A DNA stretch of 64,000 nt from Haplodiscus bocki (lineage: Eukaryota): assembly GCA_965655095.1 (NCBI GenBank), contig OZ296658.1, positions 18,662,001-18,726,000 of the forward strand. Reading direction: 5' to 3'. This document shows, in pieces, positions 49,822 through 64,000 of the stretch. Every line of letters starts with the position of its first letter. The stretch's first letter is position 1. Made by a program: the position numbers and the translations under genes. The notes beneath the pieces were generated by a model, which did no database searches, had not been told where the DNA came from, and was given only the letters and a program-made list of their open reading frames with translations.

Positions 49822-50033
49822 TTCAATGGTTCGCGGGTACCGTGTGTTGCAAGCTGTTGATGTTTCTGCGCCTGTTTCTGTTCCTCAGTGGACCCTACAT
49901 GTTAGTGTGTATTTCCGTGGACAGACTTCTCGCTATAGTATTTCCCCTACAGATGATGGTGACAGGGGACAACATCACTACCATCATGTGTGCCACTGTC
50001 TATTCCGTCTCTGCCGTACTCGCCCTTCCTCAG
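49822..50033 (+). CDS. Internal coding exon (ECL1-TM3-ICL2-TM4) of a GnRH/AKH/corazonin-receptor-like rhodopsin-class GPCR
   Basis: Acceptor TTTTGTTTTGCTTCAG and donor CAG|GTTAGT; 212 nt (phase 1 to phase 0) encode (V)QWFAGTVCCKLLMFLRLFLFLSGPYMLVCISVDRLLAIVFPL...YSVSAVLALPQ, matching the GnRHR-family VQWxAGxxxCK..ISxDR..PL..PQ pattern. The phase-0 intron after PQ matches the vertebrate GnRHR first intron. GC content is higher than the flanks. Confidence 0.88.
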
Positions 50034-50308
50034 GTTAGTATTTTCCACCCATATTTCAGTTTTTTAACAGTAGGAGTTTTTAGGTGTGCTTTCCGATTGC
50101 ACAATTTTGAAAAACGTTCGATTTTTAACATTGTGGCAAAATTGGACGAGTTTGCCTCTGAAAATTTTGTCAACAGCGAAATATAGAAAATTTGCTGTAG
50201 AAACTGATAATTTTCCTTGGAAATGCTTTTTTATACCAAAATTTAGGGTTTTTGAAATTAAAGAGCATTTTTTCCAATGACAACTGTTTCCATCTGGAAT
50301 GCTTTTTG

Positions 50309-52260: not shown

Positions 52261-53151
52261 GTAGAAATGTACTAAAGGAAAATGTATTTAGATGCCAAAA
52301 ACTGTACCTGAAAGTAGAACGGGGCTTCTCAGAAGCGGGGTTCTCTCCAATGTTTTTGTTTCAAGAAATCAGGGCAATTAATTAGGAACTTCTGAAGAAA
52401 TATCTTTGGAGAAAATTCTTCCGACTTGATTGTGAGCTGAATTTGAAGGGTACAACTATAAATATTCAGTTTGTCATGGTGAGTTTTAGGAGCTCCCAGT
52501 TTGTGAGTTGCAAGGTCTGACTTAACAGGACCCGCGACAAGAAGAAAACCCTAACAATTCCCAAAAATATCCAGCAAAAAAGACTCCAAATTGCACTGCA
52601 GAAAGGATATAATCACAAAAAATACGCAAATTTTAGGAGGCGTTTGTTCATTTGTTCACATGATACCTTAATAAACTGAGCTGAGTAGTACATAAAAAAG
52701 CATTTGACACCAGGCGCGCAGGCCGTACCAAAAATCAAGTAAAAAATTAATAGAAATTATACTATGTCAATGGGGGTACACAGGAATAAAAAAATAATTT
52801 TGTAAAAATATTTTTCCATTTATGTATCAATGGTGGTACACAGGATTAATAACGTAAAAAACCATTTAATTTTTCCTTTCCACTAAAAAAAATTCATACA
52901 CATTCCACTTTTCCAGCTGCATAATAAAAAATTCGTCTACAAAAATATAGGTCAATGTTCTGGCGACGAACAACTCCCCGATCAAATGTTCTGGCTCAAA
53001 CAAATGGAAATGAAATTGTTCTTTTAAGAAATTATGAGATTATGTTAAATTATAAGATTTCTTTTTATTAGATAGAATTCTATCATAGGATTTAGAAATA
53101 TGTATTCACTAGTAACAATCATTTTTTTGAAATGAACTGGATGAATTATTG

Positions 53152-53454
53152 TTAATCATCCACTTCACGCTCTGCAGAACATTCTATTAGCCAAACTAAT
53201 ATTAGTTTTCTCAACTGAATAAAATCACTTTTTATAACCTCTTCAGCAAATTTAAAATAATTTTCTAATATAGAAATTATTTGACTAAGCACGTTTGACA
53301 GAGCAACCCTATCCTCGATGAAATCAATTTGTCTTTTTTCCAACAAGTGTTTATAAATATTTTCCAATCCCGAAATACCAATATATTTTCCAATATTTTC
53401 AACAATAACATCATCAATAATATTCAAACAAACAGTTAGTGATTTAACCTCCAT
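53152..53454 (-). CDS. Polinton hypothetical protein (100 aa, intact ORF)
   Basis: Open ORF preceded by TATAAATG; no recognisable domain. Confidence 0.55.
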   Translation of the reverse strand: MEVKSLTVCLNIIDDVIVENIGKYIGISGLENIYKHLLEKRQIDFIEDRVALSNVLSQIISILENYFKFAEEVIKSDFIQLRKLILVWLIECSAEREVDD

Positions 53455-53469
53455 TTATAAAGAAAAAAA

Positions 53470-54015
53470 CTAAGTAATTAAATGTCTAAAACAATTTGGA
53501 AGCCAATTATAATCAAAATCTCCGAAGTCTTCTTCAATAAATTTTTTTTCCAGTTTTCTACAAAGCATTGATCTCGGTTGGGTTATATAAAGTGCAAAAT
53601 GTCATATTCTGAAGATCGGATGTAAATGTTATATCAATTTCATCGACTCATTCAGTTTTATTCTTATCAACAGTATCTAGAAACTCAAGTGGTGACACTT
53701 TTATTGCTATTGGTAATTCAATCATGCGAGGCTTAAACAAATGTGGTCTCTCCAGTGTAATTATGCTCGGAACAGAAATCCTTTTTTATAAGTATGTCAT
53801 TTTTCCGCCACGTAACACAGACAGCAAAATTATCGAGCTTTTTTTATGCTTATCATAGAATGGTTGAATGATAACTCTAAAATATCAATTTCTGGGTTTC
53901 TTACAATATATTTATTTATAATCAGGTTTGAAAAATATTTATGTTTCTTTGATCTTTCATGTTTTTTCTCATTTTTGTTTTTTATTTTAGATAGACATAT
54001 ATTACATTCTTCCAT
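53470..54015 (-). pseudogene. Polinton C2H2 (U1/matrin-like) zinc-finger protein, frameshifted
   Basis: MEECNICLSKIKNKNEKKHERSKKH (CxxC..HxxSxxH), continuing through frameshifts to DEIDITFTSDLQNMTF..QPRSMLCRKLE. Confidence 0.6.
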
Positions 54016-54267
54016 TTATATTATAATATTTTTGTGCTTTTCTAAATATTCTATTCTACTAATTTTCATTTTCAATTTTATATCTAAATCTGTTAATGTT
54101 GTACCCAATATATTTATCAATTTTTTAAGAATAACAATTTAAATCAAAGAATCATATCCTGTTTTTGATTGATAATTATAAGGTAATCTATTATATCTGT
54201 CTAACATATTAGTTATTTTAACTCGTACTTGTGGATCTTTTTTAATTACATTTATAAAATCATCCAT
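54016..54267 (-). pseudogene. Polinton small hypothetical protein with one internal stop
   Basis: MDDFINVIKKDPQVRV...EKHKNIII; its TAA abuts the ATG of the next gene (TAAATG). Confidence 0.5.
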
Positions 54268-54328
54268 TTATCATATGGAGAAAATTGGAATCTTAAATAA
54301 ATTTTTTCATGTAATCTTACCTAAATAA

Positions 54329-54487
54329 ATGAATAGTGAAAGTGATAAATATGAAGATATATATTGTGAAGATGATGGAGAATGTAGAGTTTACTGTGAT
54401 GTTTGTGATAAACTATGTATAGAAAGATATTATACAAATCATTTGAAATCAGGAACTCACACAAATAATTTCTATAAAAGACAATGA
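54329..54487 (+). CDS. 52-aa C2H2 zinc-finger protein
   Basis: MNSESDKYEDIYCEDDGECRVYCDVCDKLCIERYYTNHLKSGTHTNNFYKRQ; YCDVC..HLKSxxH motif; TAAATG start. Confidence 0.7.
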   Translation: MNSESDKYEDIYCEDDGECRVYCDVCDKLCIERYYTNHLKSGTHTNNFYKRQ

Positions 54488-54513
54488 TTAAACAATTGTT
54501 TTCTTTAAAGTAA

Positions 54514-54723
54514 ATGTAAGTATTGAATGTTACTGATTATAATAATATGACTAATGATTATAACATTAGTTTATCAACAAATAAGAATTGCACTATAAAT
54601 GGAAACAATATTGATATAACTATACCAACATTTATACTAGCAATACGTTGTGGTCTATCGTTTTTTTGTTTGATGAGTTTGATGGTGTACACATTAATTA
54701 AACATTTATTCAATAATAAATGA
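54514..54723 (+). pseudogene. Small single-pass membrane glycoprotein-like ORF (stop at codon 2)
   Basis: TAAATG-TAA then in-frame VLNVTDYNNMTNDYNISLSTNKNCTI with four NxS/T sequons, followed by a hydrophobic C-terminal segment. Confidence 0.5.
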
Positions 54724-55445
54724 TAACGGAGAAGTTTCTTTACCCAACTCATATCCAGTTAGATGTATCATAAACGGACCTAGCGAATGCGGCAAATCAG
54801 TTTTTCTAACAAATTTAATTTTAAATATTTTTAACAAAAATGATAAAATTTACATATACTCACCCAGTTTACATCAAGATTTATATCGAAAATTGATTTA
54901 ATGTCCCAATAATTATATACCCATTCACATAATCCCAAAGATTTTAAATGAAAAAGATATTGATTTAGTGATCGAAGAGATAGTTAATAAGACTTTGAAA
55001 AATCTCATACTGAAATAGAAACATTTGATAATAAAGATGAAATAAACGTTCCTCAAAAATATGATGGAGGAATTATTATCTTGGACGGTTTAAATGAAAG
55101 AAAAATGAACGATCCTCGGGTTCAAGCGATGTTCAAGAGGTCAAGACACAATATTTGATCTATATTCATAATCAGTCAAGATTACAATGAACTACCAAAG
55201 AGAACTATTCGTGCTAATAGAAATACTTTCACAAATTCAAACCAAACATTTTCAGAGATGTACGAAATCTCTATCAAGACAAAGCTTCTATGGACATGAC
55301 AATAAACGAATTCAAGTACTTAACTACTACTTGTTGGAATGAAAAATGTCAACCTCCTACAATTGACATGACTAAAGACAAATATACAGGTAGATATCGA
55401 TTAGGATTAAATTCAATATTTGTTCCTGATAGCTCTCTTTTTTAA
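54720..55445 (+). pseudogene. A32/FtsK-HerA-like DNA packaging ATPase
   Basis: Walker A CIINGPSECGKS (~54764-54799), Walker B GGIIILDG (D>G), RSRHN, IISQ, TIRAN; several frameshifts and stops. Confidence 0.92.
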
Positions 55446-55624
55446 GAGATGAATACATACAAATATATTCATAACTATACTAGAGATTGATGAATAATTA
55501 TATCAGTATTTGTACATACACAATTATAGTTATATCATCTTCATACAATTATATTTGTACTTATACTAAAGATATACATACAATTATACGAGTATCTATT
55601 CGATGATAATTTCAACCGTTAGAG

Positions 55625-56461
55625 GTGAGTATTTATTCTAATGTAAGTGAACAAGATTTGATCTTTCTACGTAATTTAGCAGAACAACAGAAAAAACAAT
55701 GAACTCTTAAAAGTAACAAAAAATTTAAAACAAACTCTTGATATTCAATTAGCAGAATCTTTATCACCTATCAAAAAAAAATTAGATGAAGTAAAAGAAG
55801 CCACTCACAATTTTGGAGAAGTTATTAAAGAATCACAACCAGAAACACCTCAATTAGCTATAGAAAATACTCCAACTCATCAACCAATTGAAAATAATGA
55901 AGGGGTGGTATATGACGTTGAATTAGAAAATATTTTAAGGAATATGACAGGTAAAACAGGGTTGTTTAAAACAGATAATGATCGTGATCGTGGTTGGATG
56001 TGGAATGGCTGTCCTATTAAAACATCAAGTGGAACAGAAGTAAAAATTAATGGTAGAAAATTTTATATAACTCCAGGTATTCAAAAAGTATTAACTCCAC
56101 ATCTAACATACCTCTGGAAAAATTAAATGATAAAGACAATGAAATTTTTATCAATTTTTGAGAAAGTCTCGATTTTGAGAAATATAAAGCAAAACGTGGT
56201 GAATTTAAATCAGGTAGATACAAACAATCAAAAACCACTTTTAAAAAACATAATGTGAAAGGCCAAGGAATTGAGAAAATCATCATACCCTCTAACATAA
56301 TTGATATCTATACTAGATTAGAAATCCTACTAGAATTAAAACTATCTGTACATACTGATACTCTAACAGAAGCAAGCAACCTAATAGACGAAATATACAA
56401 GAGAGGTGAAATACAATACAAACAACAATATCAAAATGCTCTTTACAAATTTTCTACCTAA
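55625..56461 (+). pseudogene. Conserved Polinton virion-module ORF (possibly PZ-like)
   Basis: C-terminal GQG..IIIPSNIIDIYTRLEILLELKLSVHTDTLTEASNLIDEIYKRGEI resembles the recurrent Polinton motif LPSDPNxLxxRLxLL..GN..ExxxIxDEL; lies just upstream of the penton gene. Confidence 0.6.
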
Positions 56462-56465
56462 TAAA

Positions 56466-56772
56466 ATGGAGCTACCTAGTAAAGTATTACAACAAATAGC
56501 ATTTAAAACAGGACCTAAAATAGAAGAGCATATGTTTGTTGTTTTGGATAAAAGCACTCCCCAAGAACACTTATCTCAACCATTGCAAACTAAAAAAAAC
56601 TTTAAAATACCTGTGACATTTTTAACTGGTTATAATGGTATTTTCATTGTTACAGACAAAAATAATAAATTTTATTTCAAGAAAACAATTACCGACGGAG
56701 ATGGTTTTATCCAGATTACCGTGCCGCCTGGTGCTTACGAAATTCAAAGTCTGAATAATGAAATTAAAATTT
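56466..56772 (+). pseudogene. Minor capsid (penton) protein, N-terminal part only
   Basis: FLTGYNGIFIVTDKNNKFYF..IQITVPPGAYEIQSLNNEIK matches the Polinton penton YNxxxNI..NNxF..IxIPxGxYEIxxLN motif; truncated. Confidence 0.8.
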
Positions 56773-56801
56773 ATTAAAATGAATATTAAAATTAAAATGA
56801 A

Positions 56802-57863
56802 ATTTATTCGTTAATAAATAATGGTTATGCTTTCTGTTTCAAAGAAGCTCGTTTAAGTATTACTATTGGTGGTGATATTGAACATAAAAATCTTTGCGGG
56901 CAAGTAAGTACTATTAAGAATGGTATATCAAATAAAGGTGATGATTTATTATCTCAATTTGATAATATTAACGAAAATGATATTCCTCTTCTTGAGAAAC
57001 TTAACAATTTACCGACCCAAATAAGATCTACACCACATCAGAAAATGTTGATAGATAACCATACTGATGCTAACAAACGTAAAAGAAAAAATATTTGTTT
57101 TTAGAAGATACTTTTGGATTTTGTAAAAGTTTTTAAAAGGTAACTAAAAATCTAGGCCTTCATCTGATGTTGAAAACAAATGATTTACAAGATATTATTT
57201 ATACATCTATGGCTGATGATATAAATGTGACTAATAATAGTTTATACCTATATATACCAAAATTAATTCCATCTGTTGAAGCTCAATTAATGTTTTATGA
57301 AGCTACTCAAAATATTTATAAGAAATCTCTCAACGAAAGGTATACTGAAAGACGAATAATATCAGATTTATTAGTTCAAAAAGATATAGGATCGACGCAA
57401 CAAGTGAATTCTCACAAATATTTGAATGGTCCTCACCCAACAAGTCTTAGAACAACCACTCCTGCAAAAAATGTTAATATAGCAATATTTGATAACCTAG
57501 ATGTTCGAAAAAATTAGGTTGAGATTGACGGTCAAAGATATCCTAGATATAGTGTTCTTATAAAATATGAATAAAATGATTATATTCAACAGTATAAAGA
57601 TTTAAAGTTTTTTTTTGAAAGAATACAATGGAGAACTTTTAATAAATCCTCTTATATCATATCCAGAAATGAAAACAAAATACCCTATCAAAATATTAGA
57701 TTTAAAACATCAAACTCGACATATAACACCCAGAAAAACTCAACAATTTCAAGAATATGGTATTGATCCTGACATTGCTAGATTGTTTGTTATATCAATT
57801 AAACAAAGAGAAATTGAATTATTAAGTGCTGGGAATAAATTAATAGAAGAGAAAGTTATATAA
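56802..57863 (+). pseudogene. Major capsid (double jelly-roll) protein, N-terminally truncated
   Basis: IRLINNGYAFCFKEARLS..DIEH..GQVSTI, LEDTFGFCKSF, LYLYIPKLIPS, VEIDGQRYP, YPIKILDLKHQ, all Polinton MCP-type motifs; multiple frameshifts. Confidence 0.82.
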
Positions 57864-58062
57864 TCACAAACATTCATATATGAATAATAAATATAATCGT
57901 AATTATAATTGTATAAATTTACATATAATTGTAAGTATACCCAAATAAAAACACTCATAAAATTATACTAGAAGTTATTTAGAAATTATGTGACAGATAC
58001 ACTTATACGAGTATTTATACTCGAGTATACAAACACTTATAAGTGATAGTATGTATATAAAA

Positions 58063-58451
58063 ATGAAAATATTAAATTTTAAAGACTTCATGAAAAATTA
58101 TAATTTAAAAAATGATACTATGAATGCATTTGATTTACAGAGAGTTAATAATTATCCTATTTACCCCAGAGATTCTAAAATATTTTCAGATAAAGATTCG
58201 TAAATATTGATAATGGATCTCAACGTGGATCTCACTGGACTTGTTTTATAGTACAAGGTAACAAATCATACTACTTTGACTCTTTTGGCGGTCAGCCAGA
58301 TAAATTTCTACTTAACCATATACCTAAACCATTAATTTATCACAATTATAAAATTCAAGATATAAATTCTAAAATACGTGGTTCATATTGCTTATACTTC
58401 TTCTATTTACTTGAAAGAATGAATTTTTATGATACTATTTTGAAAACGTAA
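58063..58451 (+). pseudogene. Adenain-like cysteine maturation protease
   Basis: VNIDNGSQRGSHWTCF, YYFDSFGG, IQDINSKIRGSYCL; catalytic His and Asp and oxyanion Gln present, catalytic Cys replaced by Arg (CGT); one frameshift at ~58195. Confidence 0.92.
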
Positions 58452-58558
58452 TTTTAAAAAATGTAAACCAAAAGTTCTCACATTTTCTTTTCAGTATGAA
58501 ACCCTCTTTGAAAGTTTGTTGAAGAGAACGTTGATTTGAGTCGATTTTATATTTTTAC

Positions 58559-60026
58559 ATGCCGATAAATGTATTTGGTAATAGTTCTTCCTTATATGAT
58601 AATGGTAATAAAAAGGATAGTTTGTTTGTACAAAAACCTTACTTAAGAACTAATTATTTGGAAAGTAAAATTGAAGAAGATATTGACTTGAAAAATTAAT
58701 TTAGAATTAAAAATTTTTTTGATCCTTTATCCTTACGAGAAGCAGCTCCAAAAATTTATGTCGATCAAGCTAAAACACTTGGTGTAAATGAATCGTTATT
58801 GTTGAGATTACACACTGATGCAATACCAAAACTAGATGAACGAGGTTATACACTTCTTGATTCTACTGTGACTTCACCGCAGACAACAATGGAAATACCT
58901 AATAAAAGTTATGTTGATAATCAATTGAATGATCCTAGCATAATAAAAAAACGCTGATCATGTTGACTTCAATGATAAAAATCTCGACAACGTTAGATTT
59001 GTTAAAATAAACAGCTTGCCAGCAGTTAGAGAACAACTTACGCCAAATTATTATGTTGATCAAGTTTTTTCTTATTGGCTAGATGAAATATCATTGTTAA
59101 GATTAGATCCTGATGTACAATTAAAACTACATGAACAAGATTCTAAAAATCTTAATTCTACTTTAACATCATCGAAGACGATAATAGAAGTACTTACTAA
59201 ATCATATGTTGATAGCTTACTTGGAATCAGTAGAAATAGACGAGATTTGTCATCTGTATCTAACGATAAAGATAATAAATTTGATAATAAGAAATTAACT
59301 AATCTAGATTTTATAACAGTTAATATAGATCCTAGTTTTGATAATGAACTAGCAAACAAAGAGTATATCGATGACTCAATAGGAGAAGGTACAATAGTAA
59401 AATTCAATCAAACACTAGAAAATTATCTCGAAGAATCTGTTGAAAACGACACATAGAACCTAACTAAAATTGATGAAATACAACATACAGTTACAACAAT
59501 TATTAAATATCCAAACACAGGAGGATATTTAATACAGAATTGGGTTCTAAAGTGTAATGAAAAAAAAATTTTTGGTAAAAGACAAAACTTTATAAAATCA
59601 ACAAAAACAAACAGTCCAACTGCTTATTTTGGAGCCGAGTCATTACCTCCTATCGATACTAGTTTTATGTACATTGAGTTATCATCTAATAATCATGGTA
59701 ATTTTGTTTTTGTCTGCTTCAAACGAACAGATACTATTGAAATTACTAATAAAACTGTCTATTATAACAGATAAACAATTTTAACCATTGATTCAATAAA
59801 ATCAATGGCTCGTTTTCTACATCAATTGTTATTAGAAGATAATACATGGAGTCTATGATATAAATAAGCTAAGAATGATCGGCATAGTGATAAATCATCT
59901 CAATGGACAAAATTAAATTTATATTTTAGTGAAGAAAATTATGGCATTAAATTAATATAAGATGAAATAGATACTCCTTATGCTGATATGTGCTTTAGTA
60001 AAACTACATTAACATATTCTGTATAA
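58559..60026 (+). pseudogene. Putative fibre/spike protein with KxYVD repeats
   Basis: Five (K/N)xY(V/I)D motifs, IKNFFDP..REAAPKIYVD and DP..NELANKEYID modules, an internal ~55-aa duplication and a beta-rich C-terminus; stops and frameshifts. Confidence 0.6.
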
Positions 60027-60029
60027 TAA

Positions 60030-60272
60030 ATGAATTATGGAAACTATTTTAAAGATCTGTTCGAATCAAAACCAAATTATAGATAAAAAGTATTATTAAT
60101 ACATCTAATTCAAAATGATGATGATTTATTAAAGGAATGTGGAGTTTTGAAGCGTGACACTATTCGTTTAAATAAAGAATATAAAACTATTTTGATAGAT
60201 CAAAATGAAGAAAACTTAGATCATATTAAAAACGGAGAAGAATCAGTAATTGAAAAGATTTTAAATAGGTAA
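60030..60272 (+). pseudogene. Polinton small hypothetical protein
   Basis: MNYGNYFKDLFESKPNYR*KVLLIHL..IEKILNR; TAAATG at both its start and its end. Confidence 0.5.
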
Positions 60273-60488
60273 ATGGAAGCTTTTCTTGCTGTAATGTTTG
60301 AGGATATTAGACATGAAAGATCATTAATATTATTACTGTCCGTGACAGATCTTGATATATTAAAACAAGCCAAATTCACAGATAGCGAAATGAACTTTAT
60401 ACAAAATTTAGCTTTAGAAAAATTACACAGACAGCGAATACTAAAAGAGGAAGTAGCTATTGCTTTACTCGAAGCGGAACTAGAATAG
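60273..60488 (+). CDS. Polinton small helical hypothetical protein (71 aa)
   Basis: Intact ORF with TAAATG start. Confidence 0.55.
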   Translation: MEAFLAVMFEDIRHERSLILLLSVTDLDILKQAKFTDSEMNFIQNLALEKLHRQRILKEEVAIALLEAELE

Positions 60489-60505
60489 TATTTCTTAAAT
60501 AATAA

Positions 60506-61116
60506 ACAAGTGGATATCCAAAAATAAATGAACCAGAATTGTTAAACATAAAAACAAGAGATGATGAAATTAAAAATCTGAAATATCAAACGGAGAAACA
60601 CGATTATGAGAATTTTTTAAAATCTCCTAAAATTGATAATGAATGTTATAAAAAAATTATAGAAAAAAATTTGAAAAAAAAAATATTGTTATTCATCACT
60701 GAGAAATTGATTGGATTCAGATCAGCAAAAGGTAGTTCAACATTGGGGTTTATCAATCCTGGTGCGGGTATTATTATTTCATCTAGCGCAAGTCTGTTAA
60801 CTAGTATTGTTCTCTTTATCAGAAATGAATACATATCAAAATTAAAGATACGATTTACTAAATTACATGATTGAATTAGTGTAATTACACTGCTAAATGA
60901 GAAAAGTTTAAGAACTTCTTTGGTTGATAAAAAATTGATAAAAAAGAAGCTGAGCAATTGAAAAAGGTTTATAACCATTACCTTGATAAGATAAAAGAAA
61001 TCATGAAAAATACTAGTTTCAAAGTAGAAGGTATTTTTGGTGATATTGTAAGTGAAAATAATTTTAGTCAAGAACAAATAACTAAACATAATAATTTTTT
61101 ATCCAAATTAATGTGA
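60506..61116 (+). pseudogene. Polinton membrane-associated protein (hydrophobic hairpin plus DxxIDxxE motif)
   Basis: Coiled-coil N-terminus, GSSTLGFINPGAGIIISSSASLLTSIVLFI hydrophobic hairpin, SLVDKKIDKKE; start codon decayed, internal stop and frameshift. Confidence 0.55.
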
Positions 61117-61217
61117 ATATAAACATAAATATCAAATATAATTTTTTAAACCTAGACAGAAAAAAATTATTGACTATCAACCGAGTGCTCCAACTGAAAA
61201 AACATTTGTATAGTTAA

Positions 61218-61376
61218 ATAACAAAAACATGGTGTGTTGGAGGAAAACATTTTTCTAATACTAAAAATATAATTGAATAATTAAAAATAAACCCTAAAAC
61301 TGAAAAACTCGCTAAAATTATCAAGCGAACATGTAATATTTGCGGTCGTAATAAATCTCAAATTTTTACTAAGTAA
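61218..61376 (+). pseudogene. Small basic zinc-ribbon protein (DUF5679-like)
   Basis: TKTWCVGGKH..KIIKRTCNICGRNKSQIF; start ATG>ATA, one internal stop. Confidence 0.5.
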
Positions 61377-61538
61377 ATGACTGGAGCAGAAACTTTTATA
61401 GTTATGGCTGTTAGTGCGAAAACTAAAAACCCTAAAGTTGGACAAGCTTCTAGAAATATTTTAAAGAGTAGATCCGGAGGTAAAGTTGTTAGTCTGATCA
61501 ACATCCACGGCAACGGTTTAAGATCAAAAGTTATGTAA
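61377..61538 (+). CDS. 53-aa basic, possibly core (pVII-like) peptide
   Basis: Lys/Arg-rich with SGG and HGNG glycine motifs resembling adenain cleavage sites; TAAATG start. Confidence 0.45.
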   Translation: MTGAETFIVMAVSAKTKNPKVGQASRNILKSRSGGKVVSLINIHGNGLRSKVM

Positions 61539-61567
61539 AATCATTTGAAATAAAGTTTGCTAAGTAA

Positions 61568-62304
61568 ATGAGTAATTGTGTTAAAGACTTATATGATTAT
61601 GATTTGGATTTAAGAAGTTTAAATGTGGAAGTACTCCATTGAAGAGTTATTTTCATAAAAACAAAATTAAAAATGATGGATTTCAACCGCAATGCAAATG
61701 TTGTAGGAAAGAATATTATGAAGGTAGTAAAGATCGATTACTAAACAAACAAAAAAATATAATAAAGACAGTCATGATCAAATGATTGAATATCAGAAAA
61801 AAACTTTATTTAGATATTCGCGATCAAATAACTGAATATCATACAAAATATAAAAAAGAAAACAGAATAAAGATAAGATTTCGTGAAAAAAATAGAAGAG
61901 CTTCAGATTTAAATTTTAAACTAGCTTGTAATTTGAAATCAAGAACTAATAGGGCTTTCAAATCTCAAAATGTTAGAAAGACAAATAAAACATTTGATTG
62001 ACTTAGATGTCCCCTTTCATTTTATCAAAGATGGATTAATCATCAACTATATGGTGAAATGACAATAGAAAACTATGGTTCCGTATGGCAATTCGATCAC
62101 TGTTTACCAATAGCATCATTTAACCCATTGGATTAAAATGATATGAAGAAATGTTTCAATTGGGTTAACTTAAGACCTATGTATTGTAATGAGAACAACT
62201 CGAAACAGGATAAAATTGATATGAGATTGTATCTAATACAAGAAATAACGGCGAATTATTTTATAAAATTAAATGAAGAGGGACATAACAAAGATAGTCC
62301 TTGA
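61568..62304 (+). pseudogene. HNH endonuclease with N-terminal Zn finger (giant-virus/phage-like)
   Basis: KCG..FHKNK..DG..QCKCC, NFKLACNLKSR, EMTIENYGSVWQFDHCLPIASF..CFNWVNLRPMYCNENNSK (DH-N-N); stops and frameshifts. Confidence 0.75.
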
Positions 62305-63128
62305 TAAAATTAACAGTAAAGGTCCTAATAAAAACTTTGAAACTAATAAAACAATACACAATCACCTTGACGAAATCTGGTTTATTGATTCAGCAGATTT
62401 TTCAAATTATAAAACAGCAAATATCAAAGGATATAGATATATATTCATCATAATTGATAATTTCTCTAAGCATTTGTTGGCAATACCACCTAAAAATAAA
62501 AATAGTCAAGCAATAACGCAAGAATTTTCAAATATTCTGACAACATCAAAACGATCTTTTGTTAAAATAGAAAGCGATAGGGGTAAGGAACGGTATAAAT
62601 CTCGTTTTCAGAACCTCCTAAAAATTAAAAATATGCAACATTATTCAAGATTCACAGATAAATGTCCTAGTATAGCAGAACGAGTCATTAGAACTATACG
62701 TAACTTATTAAAGAAGCCTGTATTTGAAAAAGGAAACGCTAATTGGATCTCTGAACTTCAATCTGTTATTAAGAAAAATAATTATACAATTCACCATAGT
62801 ATTAAAATGACTCTACTTCGAGCTAGTACAAAAGGTAAATGAAAAAAAAGTCTATCGAAATCTCCGAGACAAGAGAGTAAAACAAAAACCTATGTTTAAA
62901 TTGGGAAAATTAGTTCGTACAATTGTTATTAAACGAGTCTTCAGCAAGGGAGATAGTACAAACTATAGTTATAAATTATACACAACAAATGAAGTCATAC
63001 ATGACACTTTTCCTAGCTACAGAATTGACTGTCTGCTCGAGAGATATAACGAATATCTATTACTTCCTACTAAACTATCTCTTGAACAAAACAATCAAGT
63101 TATGAAAGAACTAAATTTAATTCAATAA
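62273..63128 (+). pseudogene. Retroviral-like (rve) integrase
   Basis: DDE triad WFIDSAD / IESDRGKE / IAERVIRT, YIFIIIDNFSK, HHSIKMT; frameshift at ~62840, then FKLGKLVR..FSKGDSTNYS. Confidence 0.93.
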
Positions 63129-63143
63129 TATAATAAATAATAA

Positions 63144-63668
63144 ATGAAATTAACAGAAGATGAAAATATACAAAAAAATGGCAAACAATGTGGCCATTGC
63201 TCCCAAAATACACTTCTTCCGTTTGAATATGAATGGACTTGTATCTGATGTGGTTAGAATGTTATTAAAAGAAAGCACGAACTCGCTAAAATTCAACGAT
63301 AGCGAACAAATTTTATCAATCGGTTAAAATATGCAGAGCCCAAAGTCTTTTGTATTTGTGTAGACGCATATAAAATTTATGAAAGTAATGTTTATGATAA
63401 ATTATATGAAGCATTATCCGTAATAAAAAATAAAAAAATGAAAATAAACAAGACCTTAATCGAGAAATATAAACATATGTTAGCGATTCCTGATTTTGGA
63501 AAAATTTACTGGTCGAAAACAGCTAATGGTATATATAAAATTGGACATGATAGTATTAAAATAATGAAATGGATATGTTATTATGATCGATCTTATTATG
63601 AAAATATAAATTATTGTGACATATTGGGATCTGTTTTAAAATTTTTAATTGAAATATCCGAACGGTGA
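63144..63668 (+). pseudogene. Zinc-ribbon-containing Polinton protein
   Basis: KQCGHC..WTCI*CG in frame with the 63438-63668 ORF; three internal stops; TAAATG start. Confidence 0.55.
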
Positions 63669-64000
63669 AGATTATGTAGAAGTAAAAGACAAAAGATATT
63701 TAAATCATCCTATTGAAAATCTAATTTTACGCAAATGAGATCCACCACCATCTCCTAGAATTCAATATCGAGTTGAAAATGAAACACAGATGAGAAAGAA
63801 TCAGAAAGTAATCAAAAATGAATATAATGAACTGATAGTTAAGAATTATCCTAAAATTAAACCGCTAATTATTCAAAAACAAAAATTTAAACCACCAAAT
63901 TGTCCAACTTGTAAACAAAACAATTGGTTAGAATTTCATAAAAGTTATTGTTGTCGAAATTGTGAATATATAATAAACAAACAAAAACATCAGATAGATA
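63667..64000 (+). pseudogene. Zinc-ribbon protein, incomplete at window end
   Basis: FKPPNCPTCKQNNWLEFHKSYCCRNCEYII; one internal stop. Confidence 0.5.

Follow-up and report, generated by a model that had tools for sequence, protein, structure and literature searches.

A Maverick/Polinton family of Haplodiscus bocki with a predicted poxvirus-late-type promoter at its gene starts and an optional Rpo18-like gene

Mavericks/Polintons (adintoviruses) are elements of 18-20 kb that encode pPolB, an rve integrase, an A32 ATPase, an adenain-like protease and a double-jelly-roll capsid and are bounded by inverted repeats and 6-bp target duplications (PMC8502044). The word "promoter" does not occur in the main text of that account. 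The window analyzed here, a stretch of 64,000 nucleotides of Haplodiscus bocki DNA (assembly GCA_965655095.1, contig OZ296658.1, positions 18,662,001 to 18,726,000 of the forward strand), harbors a decayed copy of an element family with the same set of genes and ends. To the described Mavericks/Polintons this family adds a putative promoter of the poxvirus late type on nearly all genes and an optional gene resembling poxvirus Rpo18.

Polinton-like viruses have already been tied to poxviruses through the occlusion bodies of entomopoxviruses (Barth et al., 2024, PMC11296320). Those elements are likewise Polinton-type and proposed poxvirus parasites; one lineage forms a new maverick-polinton branch, and a beetle chromosome harbors one of the elements in integrated form (PMC11296320). 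Their link to poxviruses consists of the occlusion bodies and shared helicase genes, without an rve integrase, and the words "promoter," "motif," and "transcription" are absent from the main text of that paper. The link of the present family, compared with them by description only, would instead be a promoter architecture and a polymerase subunit; at least 150 copies of this family were scored.

Promoter motifs shared with a helper virus are known from mavirus and Sputnik (PMC6428243) and from PgVV-14T (bioRxiv 10.1101/2022.07.28.501842). Mavirus and Sputnik have late promoters in common with their giant viruses; integrated mavirus, which encodes an rve integrase, stays inactive in the nucleus of its host as long as the helper is absent (PMC6428243). 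The helpers of these virophages are Mimiviridae-related and their hosts are protists or algae, whereas the motif of the present family is poxviral, its host is an animal and its helper is only predicted. In vaccinia, late promoters have a TAAAT that as a rule runs into the G of the start codon, and upstream of it a stretch of less strictly kept Ts in which the T at the tenth nucleotide is conserved (PMC11980589; see also PMC5294985); intermediate promoters are without this tenth-base T (PMC11980589). The family resembles vaccinia in a TAAAT(G/A) overlapping the start codon and in the T ten bases upstream; it differs in that the putative late-type promoter heads genes of every class, those for polymerase and integrase among them. 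Yeast pGKL elements are similarly A+T-rich linear DNA with a TAAAN initiator and a poxvirus-related polymerase, and slippage at initiators of the TAAA type gives rise to poly(A) leaders (PMC6211774). They have a polymerase and a capping enzyme of their own and an early-type upstream motif. Neither capsid nor integrase is known from them. Among the titles and abstracts covered (subscription papers being outside the scope), none dealt with poxvirus promoters or Rpo18 in Polintons/Mavericks; the putative late-type promoter on nearly all genes, together with the optional poxvirus Rpo18, appears to be new for a Maverick family.

Gene starts across the element family

One decayed copy cannot settle the question of the start motif, and sister copies were therefore analyzed in the 1.5 Gb genome. 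At least 150 integrase, at least 126 capsid and at least 150 ATPase matches were scored from thousands of candidates, figures which are not copy numbers. The sister copies measure 18-20 kb, and the arms of their terminal repeats are 95-99.7% identical. Terminal inverted repeats were found in 19 of the 19 elements examined, with sizes of 16.3-20.3 kb and with 6-bp duplications readable in many. The Pfam profiles of pPolB (PF03175) and rve integrase (PF00665) matched in sister copies, those of ATPase (PF04665) and double-jelly-roll capsid (PF21738) scored above cut-off, and the adenain-like protease (PF00770) gave a weak match (E 0.013). The capsid also matched atlas clusters of double-jelly-roll proteins. 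The element family is a Maverick/Polinton. Neither a catalytic RNA polymerase subunit nor a capping enzyme was found among the representative family proteins scanned. No relatives were found among the viral or metagenome contigs searched, and the matches in protein databases were filled by the family's own copies, none bearing a name. Copies differ strongly, yet the terminal repeats of each are nearly identical, which suggests that integration occurred repeatedly, out of a replicating population that was itself diverse. The family is a Maverick by membership and, we infer, virophage-like by lifestyle; lavidavirus status is not claimed.

For the start contexts, 19 copies were taken from integrase matches and their open reading frames (ORFs) were clustered by N-terminal homology; 24 of the 55 clusters were kept as genes, those dropped being antisense frames or internal fragments. 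A TAAAT core was present at 307 of the 347 gene starts, with TAA directly before the ATG in 265, TAAATA before it in 27 and TAAAT before it in 15. In a hold-out of 29 loci chosen by Pfam score, the core was found at 129 of 148 starts, including 27 of 27 for the ATPase. Among other ORFs of the element, treated by the same first-ATG rule, TAA preceded the ATG in 9 of 272 and the core was present in 10 of 272; among flank ORFs, TAA preceded the ATG in 6 of 234. A preliminary description of this DNA, made from the letters of the window, had proposed comparison with host start codons and with random ATGs of the element. The motif proved rare at the latter (TAA before 354 of 9229 non-start ATGs), and TAA preceded 0 of 10 host tubulin starts, all 10 of which had A at -3 (three further pattern matches, which are not tubulin starts, were excluded). 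In a second Polinton lineage of the same genome, 1 of 94 starts carried the motif (13 of 21 clusters used, after removal of seven clusters on the minus strand and a short overlapping ORF). The same-composition controls within the element carry more weight, because the second lineage is less A+T-rich. That lineage, which encodes ATPase, protease and integrase, represents a second, unrelated Polinton superfamily coexisting in the genome, with ~41% GC (guanine plus cytosine), host-like start contexts and at least 150 scored ATPase matches (L173, L174, L189-L208).

The core is accompanied by a second element further upstream. Across copies of 11 families, conservation was 95-99% at positions -1 to -3, 81-88% at -12 to -14 and ~55-63% at -17 to -30. 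T at the tenth base before TAAAT was present in 81% of the 307 starts vs. 23% of 354 non-start TAAATG occurrences and was the majority base in 19 of the 24 families; the fourth upstream base also reached 16 of 24. In the hold-out, the tenth-base T was present in 90 of 128. Where the ATG is displaced by 2 or 3 bases, as in a few families, the T peak shifts from -13 to about -15/-16 and -15/-17, respectively. Hence, the upstream T patch moves with TAAAT and not with the ATG. The putative two-part promoter matches the published vaccinia late-promoter consensus. In contigs of other copies, variable sequence was also seen to give way to that of the reference ~15 bases ahead of the capsid ATG (L015:4326-4340), consistent with a promoter of only ~15-17 bp.

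The motif could alternatively act in translation, either by coupling stop to start on polycistronic messages or as a start context rich in A+T. The 72-amino acid (aa) and 142-aa families do usually abut the preceding stop (10 of 16 and 13 of 18). It had been noted in the preliminary description that only some sites are such couplings, and this was borne out, as just these two families usually abut an upstream stop and divergent genes carry the motif too. Most starts lie more than 20 nucleotides (nt) from the stop of any upstream gene or are without one. The triplet directly before the ATG was TAA in 265 cases, TGA in 1 and TAG in 1, so that TGA and TAG are not tolerated there though common at true gene ends (TAA 251, TGA 71, TAG 25; n = 347). 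Furthermore, TAAAT and the T patch keep their mutual spacing when the ATG is displaced by 2-3 bases, and among the displaced starts of one polymerase type 8 of 11 keep TAAAT 7-12 nt upstream. A translation signal is hardly credible on this evidence. As sources of the motif, stop-start coupling and host start context were rejected on the stop-triplet counts, the tubulin starts and the displaced-ATG spacing.

The Rpo18-like gene of sister copies

Rpo18 is the Rpb7-equivalent stalk subunit of the poxvirus polymerase (PMC10881513). ORFs of ~145 aa resembling it were found among the left-end genes of the family, 14 of 16 starting at the TAAAT core. The protein scored 83 bits against PF03293 (cut-off 25); in the genome search with this profile, the best 150 of 456 candidates were scored, with a best E of 3e-20. 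Searched against PDB with its sequence and with a profile, the protein matched only vaccinia rpo18 up to an E of 10 (6rfl_G; E 7.8e-15 and 1.9e-19), and neither cellular stalk subunits nor those of African swine fever virus (ASFV) gave a score in that search. The gene is present in 7 of 18 complete copies, in some as a partial match. The ratio of nonsynonymous to synonymous substitution rates (dN/dS) had a median of 0.24 over 28 pairs of 8 loci, these loci being the top Pfam matches, a choice which favors intact ones. The Rpo18-like gene is under purifying selection in part of the family. Synonymous differences between copies were mostly 0.3-0.6; taken with the near-identical terminal repeats within copies, they suggest that divergence under selection preceded integration. 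A 292-aa database protein (P0409) joins the Rpo18-like sequence to an adjoining 190-aa family and may be a read-through of a decayed copy. The gene is surrounded by a variable left-end cluster of small orphan ORFs of ~70-190 aa on both strands, mostly with TAAATG starts (L115-L142).

The earlier suggestion of a pox-like or other large-virus polymerase transcribing a virophage-like satellite is supported by the start contexts, as far as these may be read as promoters. Poxviruses rather than giant viruses in general are indicated because of two further lines, the T at the tenth upstream base and the poxvirus Rpo18 gene in sister copies. These features also bear on a poxvirus-like polymerase supplied by a non-poxvirus cytoplasmic element, whether a linear element of the yeast pGKL type or a sister group of Poxviridae. 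Yeast virus-like elements do have a TAAAN initiator, poly(A) leaders made by slippage and a polymerase related to that of poxviruses (PMC6211774), and the Rpb2 search of the assembly was insensitive. However, their polymerase has two subunits and their upstream motif is akin to poxvirus early promoters (PMC6211774), whereas the present element has the late-type tenth-base T and a subunit that matches vaccinia Rpo18 only and not ASFV or cellular stalk subunits. Such a source is considered very unlikely.

The decayed copy in the window

The copy in the window is an A+T-rich block of ~26% GC, vs. ~36% in the flank, that begins at 52,684 and extends for ~5 kb outside the window. Its gene starts were set by mapping the N-termini of family proteins onto the window, with the following features.

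52678-52683, unstranded: left copy of the 6-bp target-site duplication, the right copy lying beyond the window
52684-64000, plus strand: decayed Polinton/Maverick copy of ~16.3 kb (~26% GC), running ~5 kb beyond the window
52684-52845, plus strand: left terminal inverted repeat, beginning AGTAGT, 90% identical to the right arm
53452-53457, minus strand: TAAATG at the start of a 100-aa left-end ORF (53152-53454)
54013-54018, minus strand: TAAATG at the start of a left-end ORF (53830-54015)
54265-54270, minus strand: TAAATG at the start of the 79-aa family gene, divergent from 54329 (ATG-ATG spacing 61 bp)
54326-54331, plus strand: TAAATG at the start of the 61-aa family gene
54511-54516, plus strand: TAAATG at the start of the 65-aa membrane-protein family gene, broken in the window copy
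54717-55445, plus strand: TAAATG and A32-type packaging ATPase gene, broken
55625-56461, plus strand: 280-aa family gene, start codon lost
56462-56777, plus strand: A-run motif variant and 5' part of the 261-aa gene
56796-57863, plus strand: double-jelly-roll major capsid gene, broken, 5' end and promoter missing
58058-58454, plus strand: A-run motif variant and adenain-like protease gene, broken
58559-60026, plus strand: putative fibre-like repeat protein gene (so labeled without a Pfam match), broken, ATG without the motif in the window copy
60027-60032, plus strand: TAAATG at the start of the 80-aa family gene
60270-60488, plus strand: TAAATG and 72-aa family ORF, whose start often abuts the preceding stop
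60503-61195, plus strand: 204-aa membrane-protein family gene, start codon lost
61215-61373, plus strand: 52-aa family gene, start codon lost
61374-61538, plus strand: TAAATG and shortened gene of the 142-aa family
61565-62298, plus strand: TAAATG and endonuclease VII/HNH-like gene, broken
62270-63131, plus strand: TAAATG and rve integrase gene, broken
63141-63668, plus strand: TAAATG and gene of the 172-aa protein with a putative zinc ribbon, broken
63646-64000, plus strand: 277-aa paralogue with a putative zinc ribbon, start codon lost, leaving the window

PolB homology was found just past the window end. The window copy is taken to be older than its sisters because its terminal repeat arms are only 90% identical. 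The 261-aa gene likely encodes the minor capsid protein, judging from its position and size and without a Pfam match.

The preliminary description had TAAATG heading almost every ORF of this copy. All 12 exact sites that it named are present, and 8 of the 20 window genes are without an exact TAAATG. The 20 comprise 12 with exact TAAATG, 2 with longer A runs, 4 whose start codon is lost, 1 with an ATG without the motif and 1 (capsid) without its 5' end. The N-termini of family proteins land exactly on the named starts, or at most ~10 bases off for 53454, 54720, and 61377. The longer-A variants proposed at 56466 and 58063 sit at homologous first-codon positions, and so do the two sites described as decayed, 60506 and 61218, which no longer have a start codon. 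Genes at 55625 and 63649 (both with the start codon lost) and at 58559 (motif-less ATG), as well as the major capsid gene, had been missed. The tenth-base T is present at 9 of the 12 window sites (read by hand). TAAATG was not enriched across the whole window (85 vs. 77.3 ± 8.6 in shuffles), and of its 33 occurrences in the window element, 21 lie away from starts. What matters is position, and the sister copies and controls supply the significance of the signal.

Sister copies vary in gene content and order. Copies with the same structural genes have one or the other of two distinct pPolB types (L014:1479-5255 vs. L016:2547-5813), of which one includes an endonuclease VII domain, a case of module swapping within one family. 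Gene blocks are inverted relative to the family order in some copies (L017 6801-7892; L047:604-1176), and the inverted genes still start at TAAATG. The putative fibre-like gene is tandemly duplicated in some copies (L029:5589-7586; L021/L022) and ranges from ~270 to 530 aa through internal repeats. Outside the element, a host exon at 49860-50186, ~2.5 kb from its left end, resembles rhodopsin-family receptors by what we take to be a rhodopsin-receptor motif; together with the preliminary description, it was the basis for regarding the host as an animal.

Predicted expression by a poxvirus-type helper

The start contexts and the Rpo18-like gene indicate that the element is probably a virophage-like Maverick whose genes are transcribed by the late machinery of a helper of poxvirus type. 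A poxvirus-type virus infecting the same cell would supply the RNA polymerase and late factors that read the signal, and the element would be a parasite of that virus. Transcripts would start inside the AAA and gain a poly(A) leader by slippage, which would replace the T at -3 with A as at host starts. Replication by the element's own polymerase and packaging in its own capsid may take place within the cytoplasmic factory of the helper, and integration would be carried out by the element's rve integrase. The optional Rpo18 copy could conceivably swap into, or compete for, the polymerase stalk of the helper, favoring element genes or blunting those of the helper.

Two adjacent paralogues with a putative TFIIB-like zinc ribbon and a helical domain lie between integrase and polymerase (L014:871-1386, L016:1376-2212; window 63144-64000) and are candidate transcription regulators. 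The 172-aa and 277-aa proteins are paralogous (hhalign probability 98.7); both have weak matches to the TFIIB zinc ribbon (E ~0.001-0.002, below cut-off), followed by helices. They gave no match to Pox_VLTF3 (PF04947) and no fold match, the structure models being poor (predicted local distance difference test, pLDDT, ~45). These proteins might recruit host RNA polymerase II (Pol II) to an element-specific initiator read in the nucleus, in which case the likeness to poxviruses would be convergence or the relic of a formerly poxvirus-dependent ancestor. Besides the TFIIB-like matches, this is favored by the occurrence of VLTF3 genes in some small related viruses, by the failure of insensitive searches of the assembly to detect a helper and by the second lineage, which shows that Polintons with host-like starts spread in the same genome. 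Nuclear transcription by Pol II is nevertheless unlikely: the starts leave no room for a 5' leader and have a T at -3 unlike host starts, the zinc-ribbon proteins are without a Pox_VLTF3 match, and the maintained poxvirus Rpo18 and the exact ten-base spacing would be unexplained. The ~4 AATAAA per kb of coding sequence also speak against it. Sense-strand AATAAA amounts to 4.06 per kb in element coding sequence vs. 0.20 in host genes, 0.83 in long terminal repeat (LTR) pol and 0.51 in the second lineage. This density is awkward for nuclear Pol II messages, yet it is explained by base composition and gives weak support. Avoidance of AATAAA or TTTTTNT was uninformative, as the controls were without clear depletion and the copies are not independent.

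Several observations weigh against a poxvirus-type helper. The 24 clusters were picked after their contexts had been seen, so the choice is partly circular, and the copies are related, the effective sample being closer to 24 gene families than to 347 starts. Pfam-named core genes alone carry the core at 68 of 90 starts, the weakest being the protease (7 of 14) and the two polymerase types (7 of 21). AATAAA density follows A+T content, with an observed/expected ratio (O/E) of 0.99 and controls also near or above 1; TAAATG is not depleted within sense coding sequence (O/E 0.95). The splice-donor-like GTRAG is mildly depleted in the element (O/E 0.72 vs. 0.40-0.64 in controls), and splice-donor avoidance is stronger in the second lineage (O/E 0.49). 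The match to vaccinia rpo18 spans only residues 5-108, and the gene is absent from 11 of the 18 complete copies and from the window copy. A screen for large-virus polymerase and late-factor genes, proposed for reads in the preliminary description and made here on the assembly, revealed no helper gene by insensitive searches. VLTF3, Pox_Rif, and G9-A16 were without a match, the controls being equally silent; the Rpb2 search returned only two host loci and no third polymerase; and the search for cap methyltransferase returned only host-type loci.

On the expression of animal Mavericks and their need for a helper, the analysis gives an answer from sequence for a single lineage, and a conventional lineage of the same genome serves as control. 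A virus of poxvirus type, so far undetected in this host, is predicted, and virophage biology would extend to poxviruses and to animal germ lines. TAAAT with the tenth-base T may serve as a simple screen to sort the Mavericks of any genome into helper-dependent and host-transcribed ones, and in the captured Rpo18 there may be a natural means of modulating the transcription of poxviruses. A bolder reading, put forward tentatively as plausible though short of probable, is that this Maverick family, which has flooded an animal genome, is an endogenous virophage of poxviruses, with all genes built for the poxvirus late machine and a captured Rpo18 that redirects or poisons that machine. If this is true, the integrated copies could act as an inducible anti-poxvirus defense and would record an undiscovered poxvirus lineage in the host.

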